From Escherichia phage PhaxI, in sequence record JN673056: DNA of 64,000 nucleotides, one strand, 5' to 3'. Positions 3,897-62,345 of the stretch are shown in pieces. Under the pieces are notes generated by a model, which worked only from the letters and a program-made list of their open reading frames with translations, did no database searches and had not been told where the DNA came from. How positions within the stretch are numbered: the first letter of the stretch is position 1; the number at the start of each line of letters is the position of its first letter. The translations under genes were made by a program, and so were the position numbers.

Positions 3897-4216
3897 AGCG
3901 GGGTTCCTGACGAACGCGGTTCTATGTTCATCCCTGATAGGCGGATCAGTTCCAGCAAACCGTCGGTGGTCTGATACGCTCGAGTCGAACCGTTCGGACG
4001 ATATAGCTCCAACTCGGTTCGCCCTTCCTTTAATGCGTTGCGGATACGGGTAAAGACACTATGTTCTTGATATTTTTGGCGCAGAAGATCCAAGCGTGTG
4101 ATGACGTTGCGACTACGGGTGCGCCGCCGAGGTGAAGAAACAACCAATTTCATTTCCGGTGATTTACAAGCCATGTTGTAGTCCTCTATTTGTAGGGGAG
4201 GGTATGCGTTTAACAT
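3857..4216 (-). CDS. hypothetical protein
   Basis: 119-aa ORF; start uncertain. Confidence 0.3.
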   Translation of the reverse strand: MLNAYPPLQIEDYNMACKSPEMKLVVSSPRRRTRSRNVITRLDLLRQKYQEHSVFTRIRNALKEGRTELELYRPNGSTRAYQTTDGLLELIRLSGMNIEPRSSGTPLCSLYVISNLGAL

Positions 4217-4241
4217 ACCCCATTCAATGTTTTAGAACAAA

Positions 4242-4706
4242 TTACAGATCCTGACATTGATCACAATAATCGTCATATGTGAAAGTTTCATCACATAACC
4301 CGTCGCGGATCATATCCGCTTTGGCTTCACCAAACCTTTTTAACGTGATGACATTGCCGTCCAGATCGGTGCGCAGCGTCGTGGGCTTATTCTCAACGAA
4401 ATCAAATACAACGAAGAAACCGTCAGTAATATATTTCACGGTTTTATTGGCTAGTTTGCGCATTTGTCCGTTCTTTTTAAAGATTGAAATGCGTAAGTTT
4501 TCAAATTCAGAAATATTGTCATCATGGTTTTTCAGAGCGCTCAACATTTCGTCGAGTTCAACTTCAGGGCGAAACATCTTAACTTTGTCTTCACGGTCAT
4601 ATGAAATAGATGATTGTATATCAGAAATTCCAAATCCATTTTTAACGAATGCGTCGAATTTGCTGAAATTGTTGAATGCCCAGACGGAGATTTTTACGAT
4701 TGCCAT
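4242..4706 (-). CDS. hypothetical protein
   Basis: 154-aa ORF; preceded on minus strand by GTTTAC-N17-TATACT promoter-like element. Confidence 0.5.
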   Translation of the reverse strand: MAIVKISVWAFNNFSKFDAFVKNGFGISDIQSSISYDREDKVKMFRPEVELDEMLSALKNHDDNISEFENLRISIFKKNGQMRKLANKTVKYITDGFFVVFDFVENKPTTLRTDLDGNVITLKRFGEAKADMIRDGLCDETFTYDDYCDQCQDL

Positions 4707-4755
4707 GATGTATGTCCTTCATTTCAGAGTCAGTGTTGTGCTGCTTATGGAATGA

Positions 4756-4784
4756 AGTATACGGGGTTTATTGAAGAAGTAAAC
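4756..4784 (-). promoter_or_regulatory. sigma70/T4-early-like promoter GTTTAC-N17-TATACT
   Basis: On minus strand GTTTAC then 17 nt then TATACT, about 45 nt upstream of the ATG at 4706. Confidence 0.4.
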
Positions 4785-4820
4785 CCCGTTTATTGAAGAA
4801 GTAAACCCCGTTTATTGAAT
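4766..4820. repeat. tandem direct repeat, 22 bp x about 2.5 copies (GTTTATTGAAGAAGTAAACCCC)
   Basis: Two exact units at 4766-4787 and 4788-4809 plus a partial third; each unit is itself an imperfect palindrome and carries the GTTTAC -35-like hexamer on the minus strand. Confidence 0.7.
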
Positions 4821-4831
4821 AAATTTAAAAA

Positions 4832-5068
4832 TTATTTGAAGCGATCCGGAAGGGTGTCGTGAACCTCGGCGCTCAGCACCAGGAACTTGCCGTCTTTAGT
4901 AGGGAAGCAGTAATCTTTCTTGATATGAAGCATGTGTTCAGCTGTAGCTGCTACGCAGTCGTCAGTCACATCAGTCTTCTCACCGACCCACATGCTGGTC
5001 TTGGTGTTCAAAGTTCCCTGGAAGATTGTCCCCGTGAGGGGGCTTGCGCCGATCTTTTTGATCCTCAT
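4832..5068 (-). CDS. hypothetical small protein
   Basis: 78-aa ORF. Confidence 0.35.
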   Translation of the reverse strand: MRIKKIGASPLTGTIFQGTLNTKTSMWVGEKTDVTDDCVAATAEHMLHIKKDYCFPTKDGKFLVLSAEVHDTLPDRFK

Positions 5069-5076
5069 AATTGACC

Positions 5077-5517
5077 TCAGTTAATACGGAACAAATGTGG
5101 ATAGCCACCAGGATGACCCTGGCCAGTAACGAACACGTCGAATTTTGAACCCTTGATCAGGCCAGGCAGATTGCCGGAGTCCAGCAATTCACGGATCTGA
5201 TCCATCGCCAACATCCAGGTTTTGGCAGGTTCGGCTTCTGCTTCTCCTCGATTGAGTACGAGTTCACCTTCGGAATAGAACTTCCCGCTGTCCTTCATAT
5301 AGTACAACGTGATATGAATGTACTGAGGGGACGGAACTAAACGCCAACCGTCGTCGATCAGATCTTGGCGATCATTGTCCAGTGACTGATAATCAATATC
5401 ACCAGATGGCAAACCATAGCTGCGCATGTAGCGGAACTTCTCAACACGATCTTTCACGTCGGAGATGAAGAACTCCTTCGTAGCGGGGCTGATGAATATG
5501 TATTTTTCTTTTGACAT
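5077..5517 (-). CDS. hypothetical protein
   Basis: 146-aa ORF. Confidence 0.5.
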   Translation of the reverse strand: MSKEKYIFISPATKEFFISDVKDRVEKFRYMRSYGLPSGDIDYQSLDNDRQDLIDDGWRLVPSPQYIHITLYYMKDSGKFYSEGELVLNRGEAEAEPAKTWMLAMDQIRELLDSGNLPGLIKGSKFDVFVTGQGHPGGYPHLFRIN

Positions 5518-6026: not shown

Positions 6027-6425
6027 CTAATTTAATTCTTTCTCTTGTCTCCTTTGTCCTCTTTTTACCTTTGTTTGACGAAGAAATTTTCTGTCGTACC
6101 TTTTCAGAAGGAGTGCCGTATGTGCCCAGATGGACAGGCGTCCCATCTTTACGACAAAGGAAATTGATTCAAACAACCCAGGAAACTTATGAGTCTTTGA
6201 TATTAATAATCCTTCTACGCGTAGAGCATCTTCAGGAGTTTCACATACCATAACAATCTTGGTTTCAAAGAATTCTAACCCATTTTCTTCTATCAAAGAT
6301 TTAACTGGGAAGGAAGAAGTGAAATATGTTGCCCACAAATCATCAGGATGGCAATCTTTGGAATAACGACATCCGTAATAGAAATGTCCTTGTTTAGATT
6401 TTATTCTGTACACATATGGGGTCAT
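6027..6425 (-). CDS. hypothetical protein; possible degenerate GIY-YIG-like N-terminal domain
   Basis: 132-aa ORF; N-terminus YVYRIKSKQGHFYYG loosely resembles the GIY...YIG motif; SD AAAGGAGA upstream. Confidence 0.35.
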   Translation of the reverse strand: MTPYVYRIKSKQGHFYYGCRYSKDCHPDDLWATYFTSSFPVKSLIEENGLEFFETKIVMVCETPEDALRVEGLLISKTHKFPGLFESISFVVKMGRLSIWAHTALLLKRYDRKFLRQTKVKRGQRRQEKELN

Positions 6426-22295: not shown

Positions 22296-25200
22296 TCATG
22301 CCAGAGCAATAAGACGGAAGTCTTTGAATGAAGGAGGAGCAACTCGGTTCCCCCTTACAAGTGCTCTGACTTTCAGTCCAACGAACGGATTGTTGCTTGC
22401 CACAGTCTTATCATACTCATATTCAAAGAATGTAGAACCGTCGTTAACCAGAGGCGAAGTTGGAGTAACGTCTTCCCAATCCACGCTATCCATCTCTTGA
22501 CCTGCTCGGAGCAGTTTTACCTGCACCTTCATGGAGGATTGAGAAGGCAGCATCGCCCCGAAGAACAACTTCACAGTAGAACACGGATTATCAAATCCGA
22601 TGTCCTTTGTCACGTATTTGAAGACATCTTCAAATGGATCCACACCGTATGAGTTGAAGATTACGCTCAGGTCATCGCCATCAATCATTGGAGCAGTGTA
22701 CACGTTGTTTTCACTACGCGTCATGGTGGCTCGGATTTGGAAATCCCCGACCTGACGATAGATACCTTCAGTCGGCAATGCCACGTCAGTGTCAGTTTCA
22801 AACTCAGCCCAATCAGACATAGAATTTGAAGTGGCATCGCGATAACGGTATTCCAATTTCAGAATTGAACCTTCCAGAGCCGAATTGGTAACGCTGGCAT
22901 AGAACATATCAACCAGATAATTGCCCAAGAAAGAAGCATTATCTCCACCGATTTGTCCATTGCTGTCTGCTGCCGTACCGACGTCAATCTTGAATGAAGT
23001 ATAGCTCGCATCTGTCACAGTAAACGTTTTGTTAAGTTGTTCAGGAGTAAAGCCACAACCGCCTGTCAATTCAGAAAGAGTGACATTGTTCCCAGCAACC
23101 AAACCATGACCAGGTGCAAACACAGTCACAACAGAAGACCCGCTTACGCAGTTCAGAGTATTCAATCCCAACGGACGTTGTTTTGGCCCGAGCTTCGGAT
23201 CAAATGTTACAACGTTCTGCCCCGCAGCGAAGTTACAACGATATATGCGGAATTTCATATCAGCCATTTGGTTTGGAGACCATGTAGAACCGTTTGAAGA
23301 AGTGAAGAACACCCCTGTATACGGTTGTTTGGCGATATATTCGTTGGACAGAAGGTTTTTCTTGCCCATTTCCGCGATATACGCGTTGTAATCCTGAGTA
23401 TTCGCCAACAAAACGATAGCAAACTCAGTCGATGCTTGCAGATACACCGGATAATCAAAGGTGAACTTCGTACCGCCGGAAGAGTCTGTAGAGATCGTCA
23501 CTTCAGACGGGTTCAAAGTTTTACGAGTAATGACTGTATGAGAAGGTAAGCCATTCTCCATCTCGCGAATTTCCAGAGTGATCGGAACATCACGTGACTT
23601 GGTAGAGAAGAATACTTCCACGCCTTCAATATACTCGCCGCCATTCTTAGTCGCTACCATAAACGATTGGGCAATCGGATCACGCCATTGGTCGACCACA
23701 ACTTCAGAAGTGCTGGTTTCGGTGCGAGTACTAGCAGTGTAACCCAGGACACGAGTGTTGACAAAGGTCTTTTGAATACCTTGTTTCTTACCGAAAGATT
23801 TATGAACAATTTCTGCATTGGTCAGTGTATCATCCGCAGATTTACTGTCAACAGGGCTATCCGTTAAGCGGAACACGTTGTCGCCTGTGTTGAACTTGAT
23901 TGTATCGTTCTGTGGAACGCGGAATATACCTTTAACAGCACCATTGGCATCAGTGGTGATTGGGTCACCGAAATTACCACCATTCGGTTTGCAATACAGA
24001 TTGACGTCACGACCAGAGAAGAACGCATACATACGAGTGAAAGGTCGCAGCCCAGATGCGTCGAAAGAAATATCGATCTCGCGCATGTATGGGATAACTT
24101 GCGTCTCCACAATCTGTTCACCAGTCATGGTCGTGGTTGTTTTGTCCGTGTATGTATATGCGGTGACATCACGGGCAGAAACAGTCGTGCGGTAAGGATA
24201 TCCCCCCCACACACCACCAGCGCCATGCGGTTCCCAAACACGATCAGAAACAGAAACAGTATGCCATGTTCCGTACACTGAACCTTCTTGTACAGTACCA
24301 CGGGTGTTGATCGTTTCATTGATAATACGCGGCGCAACATAATAGTTTTCGAACCAGTAGTCTGTGGTCGGGTTAATCTTCAAGAAACCTTCCCAATTGA
24401 ATACTGCATACGGGTTAACGTTGATCGTCGTCGTCGCATATTCTTGGTTCACTGAGATTTCAGGCGTGTAATTACAAACCACCATCCCATCCATCACTTT
24501 GTTCCAGCCAACAGGAGTCATGTCAACAACGTTCTGTTGTACAAACGGGCGTAGACGTCCGTTTTCGGTATCGATAGAACCCATCCAATCTTCAGACAAG
24601 TCATCAATCAACCGGAAGTCTTTGAACGGATCAGCTGCAATACCATTTTTGAAACGGGGATTGCCCGTGATGGGGTCGAACACTTGCTGTGTCATCGCTG
24701 AAGATTCCAACTGTGACAGAGAGGTATAGTATTCAACATTGGAAATACGGGTTTCCAGTTTACCGATATCGCGCATTGTATACCGACGATTATCAATAGT
24801 TCGAATTTGGATATCATCAATATTCGGCGTATACGGCGGGATCAACAGTTCATACAAACGCATGGCGTTCGCTGGGATTGCTGGAGAAGCCAGGTTGTTA
24901 GAACTGATGCCACGAGCCACTCCGAACACGCCGTTGTCTGCCAGATAAATCGCGTCGATGCGCGGCAGATAATATTCTGTGTCCAGAATAACTGCAGTGT
25001 TTGGACGAACCATATCTGTGTCAGAAGTTCCGTTGGTGATTTTCGGACGGAAATCCAAACTATCTGCCAGGCCGTACACCGCGCCTGATGTAGAAGATGT
25101 ATAATTCGGGATATCTTTATAATCCATCGAAGTATACGAATCAGCAGAGAAGAAATCACCGGAACTGTGGGCGAAGTATTGATACACCACTGTATACGTC

Positions 25201-27134
25201 CCTGAGATTGCTCCAGCGCTGGATAACAAGTTAGACTTGTAATACCCTGCATCACGCTGTCCGCCGTCTAGGACGAAGCTGGAGGTCACGTCTGCGCCAG
25301 TATCGTTTTTTACCGACACCAATTTCCAACCATCGTGATTCGCCAAAGGACGGCTAGTCTGCGAGGTGAACGTCACTGTTTCAGTTGTTTCAGTGATGGT
25401 CTTCGTTTTGATTGTGGCCGTGGTACGAATCATCAGCGCCAGCAAATTGATTGACTGGTTAGCATTACCACTGCCTAGAGAAATCTGCAGCGCCGAACCG
25501 ACCGGAGAACCAGTCAAAGACAAAGAACCAGAGATATCGAACTGCGCTTCAGAACCATCAGATTTCGCTGCAGAGTACAACGAAAATTCTGGGGAAAAAC
25601 TATATCCCAATGGAGCAGAAATAGAACCCGCGCCGCTGTTGTCCAACGTCACTTTATACGTTCTGAGAACAGTGTAGTTGATATCCACGGAGCCAGTTGG
25701 TGCTAAAGTCTTGACACCGAATACCGGAAGAGAGAAGATCAGATCTATCATAGAACTCTGGTTAAACTGATTGGATTCCAGTTCAGCAGAGAACATGGTG
25801 ATACCGCTTTCTTCGTAAGACACTTTGGTGATAGTGGACGCGTCCCCAGTCACAACTAAATCACGCATGTACAGGCGGAATTCAGTTGAATTGCGTTCAG
25901 CGGATATACACAACGCCGTGGCTTGAGTAGCGCCGGATGCATTCAATAACTTGTATCGCACAGTGCGAGATATTACTGGAACACCTTTGGAGTTCTTGGT
26001 GACCAGATAATTCCCTGTAGCAACTGCGACAGGCGTGTTATTCAGGACATCGGTATCCCGTGCCTTGTCAACGATCACCAACTCTTCCCCGACGTTTTCG
26101 ATACGACGACCGCGAACATAGGAAATACCTGGTTTCATTACAGACACGAATTTACTTTCGTCGCCGCCATCAGCAGCATTGAATACACCACCATTGTTAT
26201 TGACTTTCAGGTGTTCGCGGATGTCGATCTGGTGCGTTGAAACGTTGTAATCGCCGTTGGTTTCATACGTCCGTTGGGCCAACGTGTCTTCCAGAATATT
26301 ATAGGTGGACTGAGTCACCATAGACTGGATTTTACCATCACGAACTTTGGCCAGTTCAACAAAGTCTTCAACCACAGCATCATAATCAAATCGAGATAAG
26401 ACCAGATCTATTCGAAGACGATGAGCGCCTGGGGCTTTGGAGTTAATCGTTCCCTGAGCATTTGAATAAAGGGATTCGTCTTCAGATTCAGTCACGATGG
26501 TTTCAGTGACTTTAAATCCGACGCGGTGGGAAGACGTGTTCGAAGTTTTATCAACGATAAGAGTTGCGTCATCAACGTCTAGGAACATCCCACGAATGAA
26601 GTAAACGCCTTTCGTCATACGAGCAACGATAGAACCAGTCACAGCAGCCGCGATACCATAACCAATACGAATGAAATTATCATTCACGTCGTAAGTCTGG
26701 AAATACAGATTATCGTTAACATGGAATCCGTCAGCATTACCCGCTTCAGTCATCTCAAGGATAGCCAGCATTGTATCAGGAGCAGACAGATCACGTTCAA
26801 GAGACAACACACGCGCTTTGGCGTTATTGTCTTTCCCCAAAACGTAGAGTTCAGAAATACCTTCCAGATCAGTGAATTCAGTACCACCAGCCAAAGTGAA
26901 TTTCAAAGAGACTGCGGCATTGGTAATCGTCAGACCACCAGGGATAACCATAGAACCATCTTTGAACAAATGGTTGCCCAGTTTTTCAATTTGATCCTGA
27001 AGAATAGTCTGCATCTGGTTCAGTTCGCGAGTCTGAACCTTGATAGGCATCGGACGAAAAAGAATCCGTGAAAAACGTTTCCCAGGATTCCAGTCATCCC
27101 AATACGGGCGACGGTTTAAATTTGTAGATTGCAT
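22296..27134 (-). CDS. very large virion structural protein (1612 aa), putative tail fiber/baseplate-associated
   Basis: Single uninterrupted ORF; Thr/Ser/Asn/Gly-rich beta-type composition; CTAAATAT motif about 34 nt upstream; terminator upstream at 27201-27226. Confidence 0.6.
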   Translation of the reverse strand: MQSTNLNRRPYWDDWNPGKRFSRILFRPMPIKVQTRELNQMQTILQDQIEKLGNHLFKDGSMVIPGGLTITNAAVSLKFTLAGGTEFTDLEGISELYVLGKDNNAKARVLSLERDLSAPDTMLAILEMTEAGNADGFHVNDNLYFQTYDVNDNFIRIGYGIAAAVTGSIVARMTKGVYFIRGMFLDVDDATLIVDKTSNTSSHRVGFKVTETIVTESEDESLYSNAQGTINSKAPGAHRLRIDLVLSRFDYDAVVEDFVELAKVRDGKIQSMVTQSTYNILEDTLAQRTYETNGDYNVSTHQIDIREHLKVNNNGGVFNAADGGDESKFVSVMKPGISYVRGRRIENVGEELVIVDKARDTDVLNNTPVAVATGNYLVTKNSKGVPVISRTVRYKLLNASGATQATALCISAERNSTEFRLYMRDLVVTGDASTITKVSYEESGITMFSAELESNQFNQSSMIDLIFSLPVFGVKTLAPTGSVDINYTVLRTYKVTLDNSGAGSISAPLGYSFSPEFSLYSAAKSDGSEAQFDISGSLSLTGSPVGSALQISLGSGNANQSINLLALMIRTTATIKTKTITETTETVTFTSQTSRPLANHDGWKLVSVKNDTGADVTSSFVLDGGQRDAGYYKSNLLSSAGAISGTYTVVYQYFAHSSGDFFSADSYTSMDYKDIPNYTSSTSGAVYGLADSLDFRPKITNGTSDTDMVRPNTAVILDTEYYLPRIDAIYLADNGVFGVARGISSNNLASPAIPANAMRLYELLIPPYTPNIDDIQIRTIDNRRYTMRDIGKLETRISNVEYYTSLSQLESSAMTQQVFDPITGNPRFKNGIAADPFKDFRLIDDLSEDWMGSIDTENGRLRPFVQQNVVDMTPVGWNKVMDGMVVCNYTPEISVNQEYATTTINVNPYAVFNWEGFLKINPTTDYWFENYYVAPRIINETINTRGTVQEGSVYGTWHTVSVSDRVWEPHGAGGVWGGYPYRTTVSARDVTAYTYTDKTTTTMTGEQIVETQVIPYMREIDISFDASGLRPFTRMYAFFSGRDVNLYCKPNGGNFGDPITTDANGAVKGIFRVPQNDTIKFNTGDNVFRLTDSPVDSKSADDTLTNAEIVHKSFGKKQGIQKTFVNTRVLGYTASTRTETSTSEVVVDQWRDPIAQSFMVATKNGGEYIEGVEVFFSTKSRDVPITLEIREMENGLPSHTVITRKTLNPSEVTISTDSSGGTKFTFDYPVYLQASTEFAIVLLANTQDYNAYIAEMGKKNLLSNEYIAKQPYTGVFFTSSNGSTWSPNQMADMKFRIYRCNFAAGQNVVTFDPKLGPKQRPLGLNTLNCVSGSSVVTVFAPGHGLVAGNNVTLSELTGGCGFTPEQLNKTFTVTDASYTSFKIDVGTAADSNGQIGGDNASFLGNYLVDMFYASVTNSALEGSILKLEYRYRDATSNSMSDWAEFETDTDVALPTEGIYRQVGDFQIRATMTRSENNVYTAPMIDGDDLSVIFNSYGVDPFEDVFKYVTKDIGFDNPCSTVKLFFGAMLPSQSSMKVQVKLLRAGQEMDSVDWEDVTPTSPLVNDGSTFFEYEYDKTVASNNPFVGLKVRALVRGNRVAPPSFKDFRLIALA

Positions 27135-29585: not shown

Positions 29586-32369
29586 TTAAATAGAAGAATC
29601 CAATATACGGTAACTAATTAACTTAGTAGGGTCTACAGGATTAATCAGGTTGTAGTACCGTGAAGATACATAATCATTCTCAGAAGAGAACATACCAACA
29701 TACACTTTAGCACCTACACCAGAACAGGCATCCCCACCAGCATTGCTATCCGAGAAGAATGTTAATGAGGAAGTTAATCCGAATATAGAATTAAATGGTA
29801 CGGCTAAATAAGCGCCTCGGAATGACCGTCTGATTCTCTTACCCGTCTGAATATTAAGAATACTCCACCAGAAATATCCAGGTTTAGCACCAATAGCTAT
29901 ATGATATGGTACACCACTTTGTAGTTTAAGGTCGTTAGGTAAATCCCCAGATAAAATTTGGGTTGTACCATCGCCCCCCAATAGCAAAGCAATTGTTTGT
30001 TTTCCAGAAGCGTCTATAACTAATTGAAGATGAAGACTGTTGGATGTATCACTAAACCCTGAACCAATGGCCATGAAGTTAAATACTTCAGCTCCAGATA
30101 TGGTAGGTACTACAACAGCAGCCATGGTAATACCTTCTGGACCTGCTGTTCTTGAATACAGTAATTTATCTTTGTTGGCTTGTGATAGTCTCAGACCATT
30201 TACTTGCCCTACAGAAGATGGGACACTTACATAAACAGGTGTAGTGCTAACACCATCAAATGTAGGGGTCTCGTTCATGGTTTGCAAACCAGTCTTGGAA
30301 TAATTAACCAATCCGTTAATGCTCAGGTCGGAATTGGTGGGGTTGATAATATTGTTATCACCAATAAAGTTAATGCCCATATAACCAGTCTCAACCACAC
30401 CATTAATGGTGACACTACAATCATTAGACAGGAACTGAAAATTGCCTGCACTAGAGTTAGCACCTGAACCACTATTCGCGGCATAATTGAGTCCTACGAA
30501 TCCGTTGATAACTGCATCGCTTTTGTTAAATACGATGTTGTAGAAAGTGTTGTTAGCATTGATGCCGTTACGATTGGTGTTCAATCCGTTCATGGAAATT
30601 GAATATGAATCGCTAATCTCAATGCCATTCCCGCCACAATCTTGTACCTCAATACCATTAATAACCATATTCTGGCTGTTATTAATAGTAATGCCTGGGA
30701 ACTGTCCTACTGTACCATAAGGTTGCCAGTTAGCCCAAATGAATTTACCGCCCAATAAATACGAACCATTACCACAACCATCAAGAACCAGACATTGTTT
30801 ACCGCAGGTATTAACCTGGATATTTGTCCAAGTCCAATCAGTAGTAGCACAACGGACACCCACCTGATTGATGTGGTTGACTAAAAGAGAATCTGTAGTA
30901 ACACTAAAGTTACCACTATCAATATTTAACCCATATTCATCAAAACCTGCTATATGGACCTTAGAAATACACAAGTCGCGTCTTGGGTCTGCGGTAGTGT
31001 GGAACGGATAATCGGCTGAGAGACCTGAAGGAGTTTCTACATAGATACCTGTTGTGCCCGCAGTAAATGGCATGCCTTGTTGTGCACCTGTGCCATATAC
31101 CCCAAAGGCGTCTAATACAATAAGGGAGCATGTATCTTTTATGGTAATACAATTCCCAGTAGCAGAAGGCAACTGATGCAACCTTGAGTAATGTAATCCA
31201 GACCCATAAATAGACGACGTATTATATTTTAACTGGATATTGCTAACGTAATGTGCATCAGTTAATTGTGTGGCCTTACCACTATCCACACAAGATTGTA
31301 CTGGAATAGTATCATCATTAGAACCACCCAAAGCACCAAACATGAATGGGTTAACTCTATCAGCATTAACACGTAACCATGCCGCGCCGCCAACAGTTTT
31401 GATCACAGTACCGTTATTATCAGTCTTTCCTGTACCATCAATTAACGCACGGAATACCCCTCCACCAAGAAGAGTACCCGCAGTGTGTTGCTTAAGAATA
31501 ATGCGTTGTCCATCCATAGTGGGTTCAGTATTCCTGAGATCAGCAACAGAATGGCATTCTCCAATATACTTGGCACCATCATTGCGCCCCAGAGTGTTTA
31601 TCACATTAATAAATGAATCCTCTAAAGGCAACAAATCAACCTGCACATCACCTGGGTTGTAATTCAATTTCCCAGCAGATACAGAAGAAATGACAGAACC
31701 ATCAGGAATGGTTGGTAAACCATAACTGGTTTGCGTCGCTATATCATAAACAACTTTCTTCCCATCCAACAAAGATATGGTGTCCGTACTAACGATGACT
31801 TCAGAGTCTTTTACATTAGCAGAACGGGCGATTTCTTGAATACTTCGGTCAAACGCCGGACTGATATTCGGTTGTTTAACAGACATTTCAGCGACTACCC
31901 AAACGCCTGCAGTCAGTGCAGTTTGCAAAGACACTTTCCCTGTCGTGCTGTTATAGGAATATTCAATTTCGGGTGTTTTGTACTCGCCACCGATATAAAG
32001 AGATTGGACACCATAGGATGTGAAATCAGGAGTGAACTCGGTTTCACCTCCCACGGCCTGAAATTTGTATATGCGGATACCTTTGGCTGTATCTTCTGGC
32101 GAAAGAATTTTATCGAATAAGCAATACACAACATCGCCTTTGGACAATGCGCGCCCGAGATTCAACGTATTTCCTTCGATTTCAAAGTTGTCTAACGGAA
32201 CTTGCATACCACCGTTGATTGTGACTACGCCAGTGACAGGATAGAACGGCAAGGAAAGGAAAGTTTCTCCACCAACATTTGATTTATACGTGAAAGGAAT
32301 CTGGTGGGGAGCTGTGATTACGCCGCCGAATAATTCTTCTACATTTCTGGTCATTTGAAAATACCCCAT
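29586..32369 (-). CDS. tailspike protein with right-handed beta-helix-like domain (927 aa)
   Basis: Asn/Gly/Ser-rich repeats such as NGIEISDSYSISMNGLNTNRNGINANN; related anchor segment near residue 170; CTAAATACCCC motif upstream. Confidence 0.65.
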   Translation of the reverse strand: MGYFQMTRNVEELFGGVITAPHQIPFTYKSNVGGETFLSLPFYPVTGVVTINGGMQVPLDNFEIEGNTLNLGRALSKGDVVYCLFDKILSPEDTAKGIRIYKFQAVGGETEFTPDFTSYGVQSLYIGGEYKTPEIEYSYNSTTGKVSLQTALTAGVWVVAEMSVKQPNISPAFDRSIQEIARSANVKDSEVIVSTDTISLLDGKKVVYDIATQTSYGLPTIPDGSVISSVSAGKLNYNPGDVQVDLLPLEDSFINVINTLGRNDGAKYIGECHSVADLRNTEPTMDGQRIILKQHTAGTLLGGGVFRALIDGTGKTDNNGTVIKTVGGAAWLRVNADRVNPFMFGALGGSNDDTIPVQSCVDSGKATQLTDAHYVSNIQLKYNTSSIYGSGLHYSRLHQLPSATGNCITIKDTCSLIVLDAFGVYGTGAQQGMPFTAGTTGIYVETPSGLSADYPFHTTADPRRDLCISKVHIAGFDEYGLNIDSGNFSVTTDSLLVNHINQVGVRCATTDWTWTNIQVNTCGKQCLVLDGCGNGSYLLGGKFIWANWQPYGTVGQFPGITINNSQNMVINGIEVQDCGGNGIEISDSYSISMNGLNTNRNGINANNTFYNIVFNKSDAVINGFVGLNYAANSGSGANSSAGNFQFLSNDCSVTINGVVETGYMGINFIGDNNIINPTNSDLSINGLVNYSKTGLQTMNETPTFDGVSTTPVYVSVPSSVGQVNGLRLSQANKDKLLYSRTAGPEGITMAAVVVPTISGAEVFNFMAIGSGFSDTSNSLHLQLVIDASGKQTIALLLGGDGTTQILSGDLPNDLKLQSGVPYHIAIGAKPGYFWWSILNIQTGKRIRRSFRGAYLAVPFNSIFGLTSSLTFFSDSNAGGDACSGVGAKVYVGMFSSENDYVSSRYYNLINPVDPTKLISYRILDSSI

Positions 32370-39450: not shown

Positions 39451-39766
39451 CCAACGGGAATCAAAACGCTCGCGCGCGTTTAATTTATTCGAATATACTC
39501 GCGAGGGGGCTGACGCCCTCGCTCGTAACACCGCCTTGACAGGCAGTCCCATTCCGCAGCCATGGAGGCTGCTTCTCGTTGTTCGTTAACACTCACAACT
39601 CGAAGGGCACCGCGTTAAGATACAGTTTCTTGATGTTGTAGAAAAGTAGTTTTTACCTATTAATAATCACTGTCATTATTTTATTGGCCATTCCTGCGTT
39701 TATATTCAATAAACGTATCCCCAATATAATAATGGAGACATTTAATCAATTCGGTGAGGCTCCGGA

Positions 39767-43583: not shown

Positions 43584-43689
43584 AACACAATGAGAGAAAC
43601 TGAAGTGAGAAAGCTCGGTTAAACGAGGGAGTAATTCAGGAGTATCTCACCACTAAATAAACCAGTTGTTCAATAAACAATTGGTGAGT

Positions 43690-43890
43690 ATGATGAAAAC
43701 GTTCGGTGATTTTCTTACTGAGTGGGATGGTCTCGCTACCGACAACAAAGAGATTGTTGAGTTTGTTGAAAAGCGAGGCGATAAGTGGGTTGTCCTTGAC
43801 CACACCAAGACTAAAGTTCTTGGGACACATGACACCAAAGCTGACGCGGACGCCCAATTAAGGGCGATCGAAGCGAATAAACATAGTTGA
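43690..43890 (+). CDS. hypothetical small protein (66 aa)
   Basis: ATG at 43690 with SD GGTGAG; CTAAATA motif about 35 nt upstream; sits inside the RNA island. Confidence 0.4.
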   Translation: MMKTFGDFLTEWDGLATDNKEIVEFVEKRGDKWVVLDHTKTKVLGTHDTKADADAQLRAIEANKHS

Positions 43891-49563: not shown

Positions 49564-50102
49564 TTCACCTTCCTCGTTGGATATTGGTTAAAGAGTTTGC
49601 CCAGCTTGGACACATTGATAATCGTCTGAGTCTTCCAGCGCTCGATCCCCTCTGGTGTAGTCACGGTTAGGATTGAATAACCCCATATATGGGAACCATT
49701 CAGCACAGCCGCGCTGTGCCCACCAATTTTGTCTTCTAGTTTACAAATGAAAGACTCATATTGCATCGCAGCGTTTCGACGTGCTTCTTTGACAAACAGA
49801 GCATGGCGCTCAGGATCAGCTTTGACAATATCCGGCTTCCCAGGTATGTAAGAAGGATTCACTGCCTGGGTCAAAGAACGGTAGAGCGCATGTTTTGATT
49901 TCATTCTTTGGTAATCTGGATCACCAAACTTGACACCAACCGAAGATGGCCACGGAGCGCACTTCTCGACGTCCCAGCCGTTGGATGCCAGATCGTCCAT
50001 TATGTTCTTGATGACTTTGTTCGCGTACTGCTCAGCAGCATTCTCAGCATCAACCAGCAGAGGCTCAACTGCGATACGGACAGGAGTTTTTGGCATATTC
50101 AT
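49560..50102 (-). CDS. hypothetical protein
   Basis: 180-aa ORF overlapping downstream gene by 4 nt. Confidence 0.5.
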   Translation of the reverse strand: MNMPKTPVRIAVEPLLVDAENAAEQYANKVIKNIMDDLASNGWDVEKCAPWPSSVGVKFGDPDYQRMKSKHALYRSLTQAVNPSYIPGKPDIVKADPERHALFVKEARRNAAMQYESFICKLEDKIGGHSAAVLNGSHIWGYSILTVTTPEGIERWKTQTIINVSKLGKLFNQYPTRKVK

Positions 50103-50150
50103 GATATAGTCCTTCAGTTCAAAGTAAGCCCCCGAAGGGGCTTTGTCATA

Positions 50151-50708
50151 TTAGAGGCGGGAATCCAACCATGCGTTCTTTTCATTCTGCCATTCCCAAG
50201 CGGCCTGACCACCAGCCATAATCACTTCCAGAGAAGGAGTATTGTCATCCTCGCCGCCGTGAAGATCTGGATCAAATCCATCATCTTCCGGATCATCTTC
50301 ACATTCGTTCTGATATGCGGAATATTCAATATAATGCGCTTCGGCTTCGCAATCCATGTCTCCCAGAGCAGTCTCAAGAGTCATTTTACCTTCGGCAATC
50401 AGCTCAGCCGTTGCGTCGTCCAGACCTGCGTCTTTCGCTTCAACAAAGAGTTCATGACGTTTCTGGAAGAGAAAGAATTGCATGGCGGCAGAACGTGAAT
50501 CAAAGAATTCTTGACGAGGAGCGGTGATATCACGCCCATCAATTTTACTTACCATCACGACACGAGAACCGTACTCAACCAGGAAGCGACCGCCTTTTAC
50601 GGGGTTGCTGCCGTCAACTGTGCCCAAAGTGGTGATTACACGGCCTTCTTCGGTGCCGAACAATACAGTTTTGCCGGATTTAGATTGAGCGATAATTTCG
50701 ATTGCCAT
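50151..50708 (-). CDS. hypothetical acidic protein
   Basis: 185 aa from ATG at 50708 with SD AAGGAAAT; GTTTAC-N17-TATACT element upstream. Confidence 0.5.
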   Translation of the reverse strand: MAIEIIAQSKSGKTVLFGTEEGRVITTLGTVDGSNPVKGGRFLVEYGSRVVMVSKIDGRDITAPRQEFFDSRSAAMQFFLFQKRHELFVEAKDAGLDDATAELIAEGKMTLETALGDMDCEAEAHYIEYSAYQNECEDDPEDDGFDPDLHGGEDDNTPSLEVIMAGGQAAWEWQNEKNAWLDSRL

Positions 50709-50756: not shown

Positions 50757-50785
50757 AAGTATACGCCAGTTATTGAAGAAGTAAA
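50757..50785 (-). promoter_or_regulatory. sigma70/T4-early-like promoter GTTTAC-N17-TATACT
   Basis: Same architecture and same TTCTTCAATAA spacer core as 4756-4784; upstream of the ATG at 50708. Confidence 0.4.
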
Positions 50786-50803
50786 CTTTATTCAATAAAT
50801 ATT

Positions 50804-54706: not shown

Positions 54707-54766
54707 TTCAATAAACCAAAGGGGGATATAATTCCCCCTGTTATCCCTTTGACAACAGGTATTGTT

Positions 54767-59297: not shown

Positions 59298-59322
59298 TCT
59301 GATTGCGATTGCGTTCTTCAAT

Positions 59323-59365
59323 AAAGGGGAATGGGTTATTATTAGCCCGTTCCCCTTTCTTTTTG
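59323..59365 (+). terminator. rho-independent terminator
   Basis: AAAGGGGAATGGG...CCCGTTCCCCTTT hairpin followed by CTTTCTTTTT. Confidence 0.55.
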
Positions 59366-62295: not shown

Positions 62296-62311
62296 TAGTT
62301 CTTCAATAAAT

Positions 62312-62345
62312 GGGGATAGGGTATTATTGCTCTATCCCCTTTTCA
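62312..62345 (+). terminator. rho-independent terminator
   Basis: GGGGATAG...CTATCCCC hairpin followed by TTTTCA. Confidence 0.5.

Follow-up and report, generated by a model that had tools for sequence, protein, structure and literature searches.

A predicted T4-early-type promoter inside a PeSL-like intergenic cassette of Ackermannviridae carries a private 22-bp duplication in phage PhaxI

An intergenic region on the minus strand of Escherichia phage PhaxI (sequence record JN673056) combines promoter-like hexamers, an inverted repeat and 22-bp direct repeats just upstream of a small gene, which raises the question of what such an element does: start transcription, end it, or bind a factor of the phage. 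We analyzed it within a stretch of 64,000 nucleotides, referred to here as the window. The window is Kuttervirus-like and belongs with the Ackermannviridae (ViI-like phages). In the 24 kb compared, its identity to the Salmonella phages BRM 13313 and Se_EM1 and to the E. coli phage CBA120 is about 96-97%; it is collinear with CBA120 from about 92.7 to 157.3 kb.

A preliminary description of this DNA had noted that GTTTAC, a 17-nt spacer and TATACT precede the minus-strand gene at 4242-4706, and had read them as an early-promoter-like element. This arrangement is present in the sequence at 4784-4756 (Table 1). The element is intergenic, lying between the stop codon at 4832 and the ATG at 4706, is co-oriented with the downstream gene and is followed by a Shine-Dalgarno (SD) sequence and an ATG. 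Read on the minus strand, from the stop of the 78-aa gene to the ATG of the 154-aa gene, the order is TTTTTAAATTTA-TTCAATAAACGGGGTTTACTTC-TTCAATAAACGGGGTTTACTTC-TTCAATAAACCCCGTATACTTC-ATTCCATAAGCAG...GAAGGACATACATCATG. GTTTAC occurs twice in this array, and the proximal copy is the one with the correct spacing to TATACT. The A/T-rich stretch TTTTTAAATTTA is possibly UP-like. The upstream 78-aa protein is DUF7446, and the neighbouring proteins all fall in PHROGs of unknown function.

Table 1. Positions of the element, of its surroundings and of related sites in the window
Feature	Position	Strand	Remarks
-10 hexamer TATACT	4761-4756	-	unchanged in 9/9 aligned relatives; minus_10_signal in LIMEstone1 ortholog
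17-nt spacer TTCTTCAATAAACCCCG	4778-4762	-	invariant in four genera; contains proximal TTCAATAA box (4775-4768) and hairpin 3' arm
Proximal -35 hexamer GTTTAC, T4 early type	4784-4779	-	minus_35_signal in LIMEstone1 ortholog
Perfect 10-bp hairpin, ACGGGGTTTA / loop CTTCTTCAA / TAAACCCCGT	4761-4789	-	inverted-repeat search (I2), folding
Two identical 22-bp units TTCAATAAACGGGGTTTACTTC	4819-4798 and 4797-4776	-	one is the private extra copy
A/T-rich stretch TTTTTAAATTTA	4831-4820	-	between stop of upstream 78-aa gene and 22-bp repeat
Stop codon TAA of upstream 78-aa gene	4834-4832	-	
Conserved leader, CA-rich, unstructured 5'UTR	4707-4755	-	alignment; SD GAAGGA 4720-4715; ATG 4706-4704
Downstream gene, 154 aa, phrog_6516, function unknown	4242-4706	-	fills variable slot
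Second conserved intergenic cassette, far slot border	4174-4241	-	hairpin GGGTATG-TTAAAC-GCATACCC (4220-4200), SD, next ATG
Paralogous site B	50758-50798	-	inverted box TTTATTGAATAAA, GTTTAC 50786-50781, TTCTTCAATAACTGGCG, TATACT 50763-50758
TTCAATAA-N12-(TATAAT, TATGAT or TATTAT)	39705-39730, 43669-43694, 54707-54732, 59317-59342, 62302-62327	+	without recognisable -35
CTAAATA(C/T)C	48186	+	
CTAAATA(C/T)C	39450, 35614, 32397, 27174, 20659, 15637	-	

The motif is far more frequent than expected in the window: GTTTAC-N16-18-TATAMT was observed 3 times against 0.03 expected, and GTTTACTTCTTCAATAA, with up to three mismatches allowed, 5 times against 0.34. On these shuffle statistics a chance origin of the motif matches was rejected. 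One strict match, GTTTAC-N16-TATACT at 22998-23025 (minus strand), lies inside a 1612-aa structural ORF (22296-27134) and is identical in CBA120; this match is probably due to chance, the alternative being an internal promoter.

Host sigma-70 RNA polymerase would read the -35 GTTTAC, the 17-nt spacer, the -10 TATACT and the upstream A-rich stretch. The transcription start is predicted near 4749/4748, about 7 nt downstream of TATACT, and transcripts starting there would lack the hairpin and run through the conserved unstructured leader and the SD into the small gene. A structured or riboswitch-like 5'UTR was considered and rejected, as the predicted fold of the leader (z = +0.48) is no better than that of shuffled sequences. 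Part of a 17-nt inverted repeat (I1) falls upstream of the predicted start, and the repeat is no more than 76% complementary; a search of 4200-5200 against RNA families gave no match at gathering score.

The same signals have been recognized before in a relative. In the GenBank entry of Dickeya phage LIMEstone1 (HE600015), the ortholog upstream of ORF133 is annotated as a "putative early promoter" with GTTTAC and TATACT (Adriaenssens et al. 2012, PMC3296691); the promoter calls of these authors are predictions derived from T4 consensus sequences (PMC3296691). Paralogous sites are given as early promoters in phage AG3 (Anany et al.). In T4, GTTTAC is the consensus of the early -35, and T4-like early promoters have an A-rich upstream region (PMC1524935); AATAAA occupies the place of that region in the window.

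How far does conservation bear on the question? A 45-bp core, TTCAATAAACGGGGTTTACTTCTTCAATAAACCCCGTATACTTCA, is invariant in 9 relatives from four genera (Kuttervirus, Taipeivirus, Limestonevirus and Agtrevirus), while the flanking coding sequence diverges. All IMG/VR contigs that contain the exact motif are 150-160 kb long, and no genome has it more than twice. Since everything is invariant at this site, the site itself is uninformative as a phylogenetic footprint, and its invariance could reflect gene conversion among cassettes instead of selection on transcription. A single metagenomic variant, L169, keeps GTTTAC-TTCTTCAATAAA-N5-TATACT and has lost both arms of the hairpin.

The sister sites proved more informative. 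The preliminary description had reported a near-identical element before another minus-strand gene, and this was confirmed at 50786-50758 (site B), one base away from where it had first been placed. It had also called for a genome-wide motif search, which returned two intergenic sites in the window (A, the present element, and B). A scan of the whole CBA120 genome gave about nine intergenic minus-strand (G/C)TTTAC-N17/18-TAnnnT sites (A to I), each co-oriented with the downstream gene. Site B lies upstream of a 185-aa gene (50151-50708, minus strand), and the leaders of sites A, B and C (the last in CBA120) are paralogous. Eight of the approximately nine CBA120 sites have orthologs in LIMEstone1, in which the -35 positions are identical (48/48), the -10 stays TAnnnT and the spacing stays at 17/18 nt. 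Spacer identity between the two phages falls to 7/18 at site G and 6/18 at site H. Hexamers and spacing are thus kept while several spacers diverge, a pattern expected of real promoters. Together with the LIMEstone1 annotation and the T4 -35 consensus, this footprint supports the early-promoter-like reading insofar as DNA letters can speak to it.

Several points weigh against a promoter, or against an early one. TATACT differs from TATAAT at position 5, and a generic sigma-70 scan scored the element at 9/12, no better than many background matches. The major capsid gene lies upstream of the site on the same strand, and such surroundings are not obviously early. Phage thymidines are hypermodified (PMC5889632), which may affect how host polymerase recognises the DNA. 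Kutter et al. (2011) could not identify early promoters or early/middle control signals of CBA120 by informatics (PMC3184105), and in the literature searched we found no 5'-end mapping, reporter or expression data for Ackermannviridae promoters.

The hairpin offers a different view of the same DNA. Its arms, ACGGGGTTTA (4789-4780) and TAAACCCCGT (4770-4761), pair perfectly around a 9-nt loop that holds the end of the -35, so that the structure shares sequence with the -35 and the spacer, and its last base is the first of the -10. Folding predicts -13.7 kcal/mol for the gene strand (z = -4.9) and -19.6 kcal/mol for the opposite strand. One could suppose that the element is solely an intrinsic, possibly bidirectional terminator or RNA-stabilising hairpin that ends the 78-aa gene, and that its promoter likeness is incidental. 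The stability of the 10-bp hairpin is in keeping with this, as are its annotation as a terminator in the KWBSE43-6 record (ARNOLD, -11.3) and the still lower fold energy of the opposite strand, where the stem is followed by GUUUAUUGAAUAAAUUU, a better tail than that of the gene strand. However, the L169 variant has neither arm, yet -35, box and -10 are all present in it; at site B the promoter signals are the same and there is no G/C hairpin; and hexamers and spacing are kept at about nine sites at which hairpins are absent or differently placed. Moreover, the gene-strand tail, UAUACUUCAUU, is a poor U-tract and falls short of the U run that follows the stem of a Rho-independent terminator, and a terminator scan of the window did not call the hairpin. 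We consider it very unlikely that termination is the whole function of the element.

We favour a promoter that also carries a putative attenuating hairpin. Transcripts arriving from the upstream gene contain the whole hairpin and would probably be attenuated or terminated; because of the poor U-tract and the lack of a scan call, termination on the gene strand may be weak. At three sister sites (C, F and H) CTTTAC immediately follows a canonical terminator stem, so that the U-tract doubles as the -35, and in L169, which has lost the overlapping hairpin, a separate canonical terminator lies just upstream of the promoter signals. Total invariance of the core leaves no covariation with which to test the hairpin, the sole variant, L169, having lost both arms together.

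The number of 22-bp units sets the PhaxI element apart from its orthologs. The preliminary description had the -35 portion and spacer duplicated twice in tandem as 22-bp units. The repeats are indeed perfect: Tandem Repeats Finder reports period 22, 2.5 copies and 100% matches at 4766-4819, and a separate repeat search found three copies spaced 22 bp. The number of duplications was overstated, the array being composed of 1.5 ancestral units and one private unit. We aligned the intergenic region with that of CBA120, SJ3, BRM 13314, Marshall and Det7 (Kuttervirus), May and KWBSE43-6 (Taipeivirus), PP35 (Limestonevirus) and Gloob (Agtrevirus). All of these relatives (9/9) are shorter by exactly one 22-bp unit; they carry 1.5 units, with TTCAATAAAC present twice, 22 bp apart. 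Because all relatives already have this pair, the window has gained one extra unit and not two.

The extra unit was not seen in a 101-bp BLAST against 262 Ackermannviridae records; among the matches listed, 99 query bases corresponded to 76-78 record bases, and any record with the extra unit would rank first among the 262. The two-unit junction had no exact match in IMG/VR or the JGI metagenomes, and BRM 13314 has the exact leader of the window without the extra unit. Given its absence from the relatives and from the database matches, we conclude that the duplication is private to this phage and probably of recent date. Most likely the 22-bp unit was added by slippage or unequal exchange involving the two ancestral TTCAATAAAC direct repeats, the simplest origin for the extra copy.

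Could the extra unit have arisen during assembly or sequencing instead? The two units are 100% identical and their junction was seen in no other sequence searched, as would be expected of an artefact. Yet the repeat array, at 66 bp, is shorter than ordinary reads, and assemblers seldom miscount such an array for that reason; slippage between existing 10-bp direct repeats 22 bp apart is an expected mutation; and a comparable two-copy 16-bp tandem, CTTTACTTCAATAAAA, is fixed at another promoter of the family across Kuttervirus. An artefact is very improbable in our judgment. The CTTTACTTCAATAAAA tandem lies outside the window, at CBA120 30490-30540 (locus L042), directly after a terminator hairpin; it is found at site F, 3' of a gene annotated as a transcriptional regulator, is not polymorphic and is entered as a repeat_region in some records.

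With the extra unit come another GTTTAC (4806-4801), another 5' hairpin arm (4811-4802) and one further TTCAATAA box. The unit gives no second promoter, since the hexamer 17 nt after the distal GTTTAC is TTTACT, in which position 2 is not the A that a -10 requires; a second promoter made by the duplication was rejected on this ground. The spare 5' arm forms a further pair (I3), and the minimum-energy fold still takes the proximal arm. The duplication would thus add one more TTCAATAA box and a spare hairpin arm, and would shift the upstream A/T block by about two helical turns.

What, then, is the TTCAATAA box, which the preliminary description took as a hint of a phage-specific activator box? 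Copies lie in the spacer, 22 bp upstream of it and, in this phage only, 44 bp upstream. The box itself is real: it is intergenic family-wide, and at many sites with no -35 a -10-like hexamer follows it at a distance of 12 nt. In the present element it is part of the spacer, 6 nt away from the -10, and this is not the position of an activator. An overlapping promoter of the box-dependent class that uses the spacer box was also rejected, as the hexamer 12 nt after the proximal box is TCATTC.

An alternative view of the element follows from these copies, namely that the TTCAATAA boxes (in oligonucleotide form, TTCAATAAA) are its functional core and candidate sites for a phage factor analogous to MotA, and that the promoter is regulated and not constitutive early. 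Such a factor would switch the promoter off or retime it, and the three boxes at 22-bp spacing would form an enlarged operator array. The evidence for a meaningful box is considerable. In the window TTCAATAA was observed 20 times against 4.4 expected, and it is the top intergenic 8-mer in CBA120, LIMEstone1 and the window. In CBA120 there are 21 intergenic and 23 coding copies, intergenic DNA making up 6.9% of the genome. The box lies exactly 12 nt upstream of a -10-like hexamer in 10/44 cases in CBA120 (p = 2e-11) and 5/20 in the window (p = 2e-6), none of them with a recognisable -35, and the spacing of MotA box and -10 in T4 is 12 +/- 1 bp (PMC2988021). Most sites of the GTTTAC/CTTTAC type have another box, direct or inverted, on the upstream side of the -35, and three paralogs were named "middle promoters" by the LIMEstone1 annotators.

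Against this view, the box of the element stands 6 nt and not 12 nt from the -10; at sites E, G and H the genera agree in the -35 and the -10 but not in the spacer box; homologues of MotA and AsiA are absent from ViI-like phages (Kutter 2011, PMC3184105); the upstream AATAAA could simply be a UP-like A-tract; and we found no candidate binding protein in this analysis. We regard box-centred regulation as a rather doubtful account of the element. A protein bound at the spacer box would overlap with RNA polymerase, a placement more fitting for a repressor than for an activator; if a protein does bind TTCAATAA here, repression or retiming is more likely than activation.

The five TTCAATAA-N12 sites of the window (Table 1) are all intergenic and upstream of plus-strand genes, and several are conserved in LIMEstone1, where 3/27 boxes have this arrangement. 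The hexamers at their -35 position read nnnTTC, unlike TTGACA. A search of IMG/VR with TTTACTTCTTCAATA yielded mostly chance matches in coding sequence, and 2/119 loci among the matches listed were from Ackermannviridae. Tentatively, TTCAATAA(A) might be a factor site of the Ackermannviridae in a MotA role, replacing the -35 in the N12 arrangement (a middle class) and acting as an operator in or near early promoters; taken as a whole, we hold this to be unlikely. If it were true, the middle class would number at least 10 CBA120 sites and 5 window sites, and the 22-bp duplication would be a natural variant in operator copy number. The 2012 "Viunalikevirus" paper reportedly mentions conserved regulatory sequences in its abstract, and the TTCAATAA motif may already have been described there.

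Further intergenic signals were noted in the course of this analysis. At 54715-54745, 59325-59360 and 62310-62345 (plus strand), hairpins hold the -10 in their loop, for example GGGGGA-TATAAT-TCCCCC; those at 59.3 and 62.3 kb resemble terminators, as their loop contains TATTAT and a T-run follows. Transcription from upstream would end at such interleaved hairpins, and new transcripts would begin within the 3' arm. CTAAATA(C/T)C precedes the start codons of structural genes (tail spikes, baseplate and the sheath/terminase region) by 25-50 nt, is often followed by a leader hairpin such as AAATACCCCATA...TATGGGGTATTT, and is probably the late promoter of the Ackermannviridae; ACTAAATA ranks second among the enriched intergenic 8-mers.

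The surroundings of the element point to a second role, as a border between exchangeable genes. The intergenic cassette of about 100 bp, a predicted promoter with a hairpin, is conserved throughout the Ackermannviridae. Homology between the phages stops about 6 nt past the ATG, and the first gene after the cassette comes from one of five protein families among which BLASTP finds no similarity (154 aa, 15 loci; 98 aa, 7 loci; 93 aa, 5 loci; 102 aa, 1 locus; 88 aa, 1 locus). Past the stop codon of the slot gene a second cassette resumes homology with TTTGTTCTAAACCTTTGAACGGGGTATGTTAAnnGCATACCC...ACAAATAGAGGACTTTAnCATG. This second cassette reads TTTGTTCTAAA..., the hairpin, ...ACAAATAGAGGACT and the ATG, and the gene that follows it also varies between phages. 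Since a recurring cassette flanks a slot in which unrelated small genes have been exchanged, it would also serve as a homology patch for modular gene shuffling.

A deletion at one of the sister sites is in keeping with this. In the IMG/VR contig L035 the gene downstream of site B has been deleted, with the junction in the SD/ATG region. At 50101-50135 (minus strand), a terminator-like hairpin, GCCCC-TTCG-GGGGC, runs into CTTAC and the leader of the next gene, TTTGAACTGAAGGACTATATCATG. This leader agrees with the leaders of sites A and B at their 3' end, and seems to have been the partner in the crossover that gave the L035 deletion. Local plasticity has a second source in the region 6027-6425 (minus strand), where a 132-aa ORF beginning MTPYVYRIKSKQGHFYYG lies between the major capsid gene and the small-gene cluster; a GIY-YIG homing endonuclease is annotated there in relatives, and coverage of the region varies between phages.

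Collectively, our results make it probable that the element is a sigma-70 promoter of the T4 early type with an attenuating hairpin, within a cassette that borders a gene slot and that in this phage has gained one private unit by slippage. The finding, a conserved predicted T4-early-type promoter inside a PeSL-like cassette, is genuine and largely ordinary. By itself the element adds little, because its ortholog is already annotated and only the small private duplication is new; the TTCAATAA-N12-(-10) class and the cassette-bordered gene slot are more worthwhile. The motifs (G/C)TTTAC-N17/18-TAnnnT and TTCAATAA-N12-TAnnnT are testable candidates for the signals that Kutter et al. (2011) could not identify in CBA120. 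PeSL-like cassettes bordering swappable small genes in ViI-like phages would extend this mechanism of modular evolution beyond the T4-like phages. These phages are widely used in biocontrol (Salmonella, E. coli O157, Klebsiella, Dickeya), and a map of their transcription units is therefore of practical value.

Comparison with known systems places the element among early-type signals. The LIMEstone1 ortholog has the same GTTTAC, 17-nt spacer, TATACT, hairpin and leader; it differs in being a single unit without the extra 22-bp copy and in having a gene of the 93-aa family downstream. T4 early promoters share the -35 GTTTAC, whereas the element lacks a TGn extended -10, has TATACT as its -10 and carries in its spacer a conserved TTCTTCAATAA that is outside the T4 consensus. 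With T4 middle promoters the likeness is found in the sister TTCAATAA-N12 class, where a box of 8-9 bp stands in place of the -35, 12 nt from a good -10; the box is TTCAATAA and not TGCTT, and homologues of MotA/AsiA are missing from ViI-like phages. The element itself, with no TGCTT and with its TTCAATAA box 6 nt from the -10, does not resemble a MotA-dependent promoter.

The closest parallel is with the PeSL (promoter-early stem-loop) cassettes of the T4-like phages RB49/phi1, PST/T4 and nt-1/KVP40 (Arbiol 2010, PMC2839356; Comeau 2014, PMC4122927). In PST/T4 the PeSL promoter reads TTTACW-N17-TAYWAT; for PeSLs in general, crossovers fall between the -10 and the ATG, and slipped extra -35/-10 copies occasionally occur (PMC2839356, PMC4122927). 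Promoter activity, terminator activity and mini-circle formation have been shown for the PeSLs of RB49 (PMC2839356). The present cassette differs in belonging to Ackermannviridae and not to T4-like phages. Its stem-loop overlaps the -35 and spacer, whereas that of a PeSL lies just upstream of the promoter, and its hairpin is followed by a poor U-tract. In both systems, an A/T-rich region, a G/C stem-loop, a promoter of the sigma-70/T4-early type (here a predicted one), an SD and an ATG are joined in one unit, which is repeated at many intergenic sites (here two in the window and about nine in CBA120) and adjoins gene insertions, deletions and replacements between relatives.
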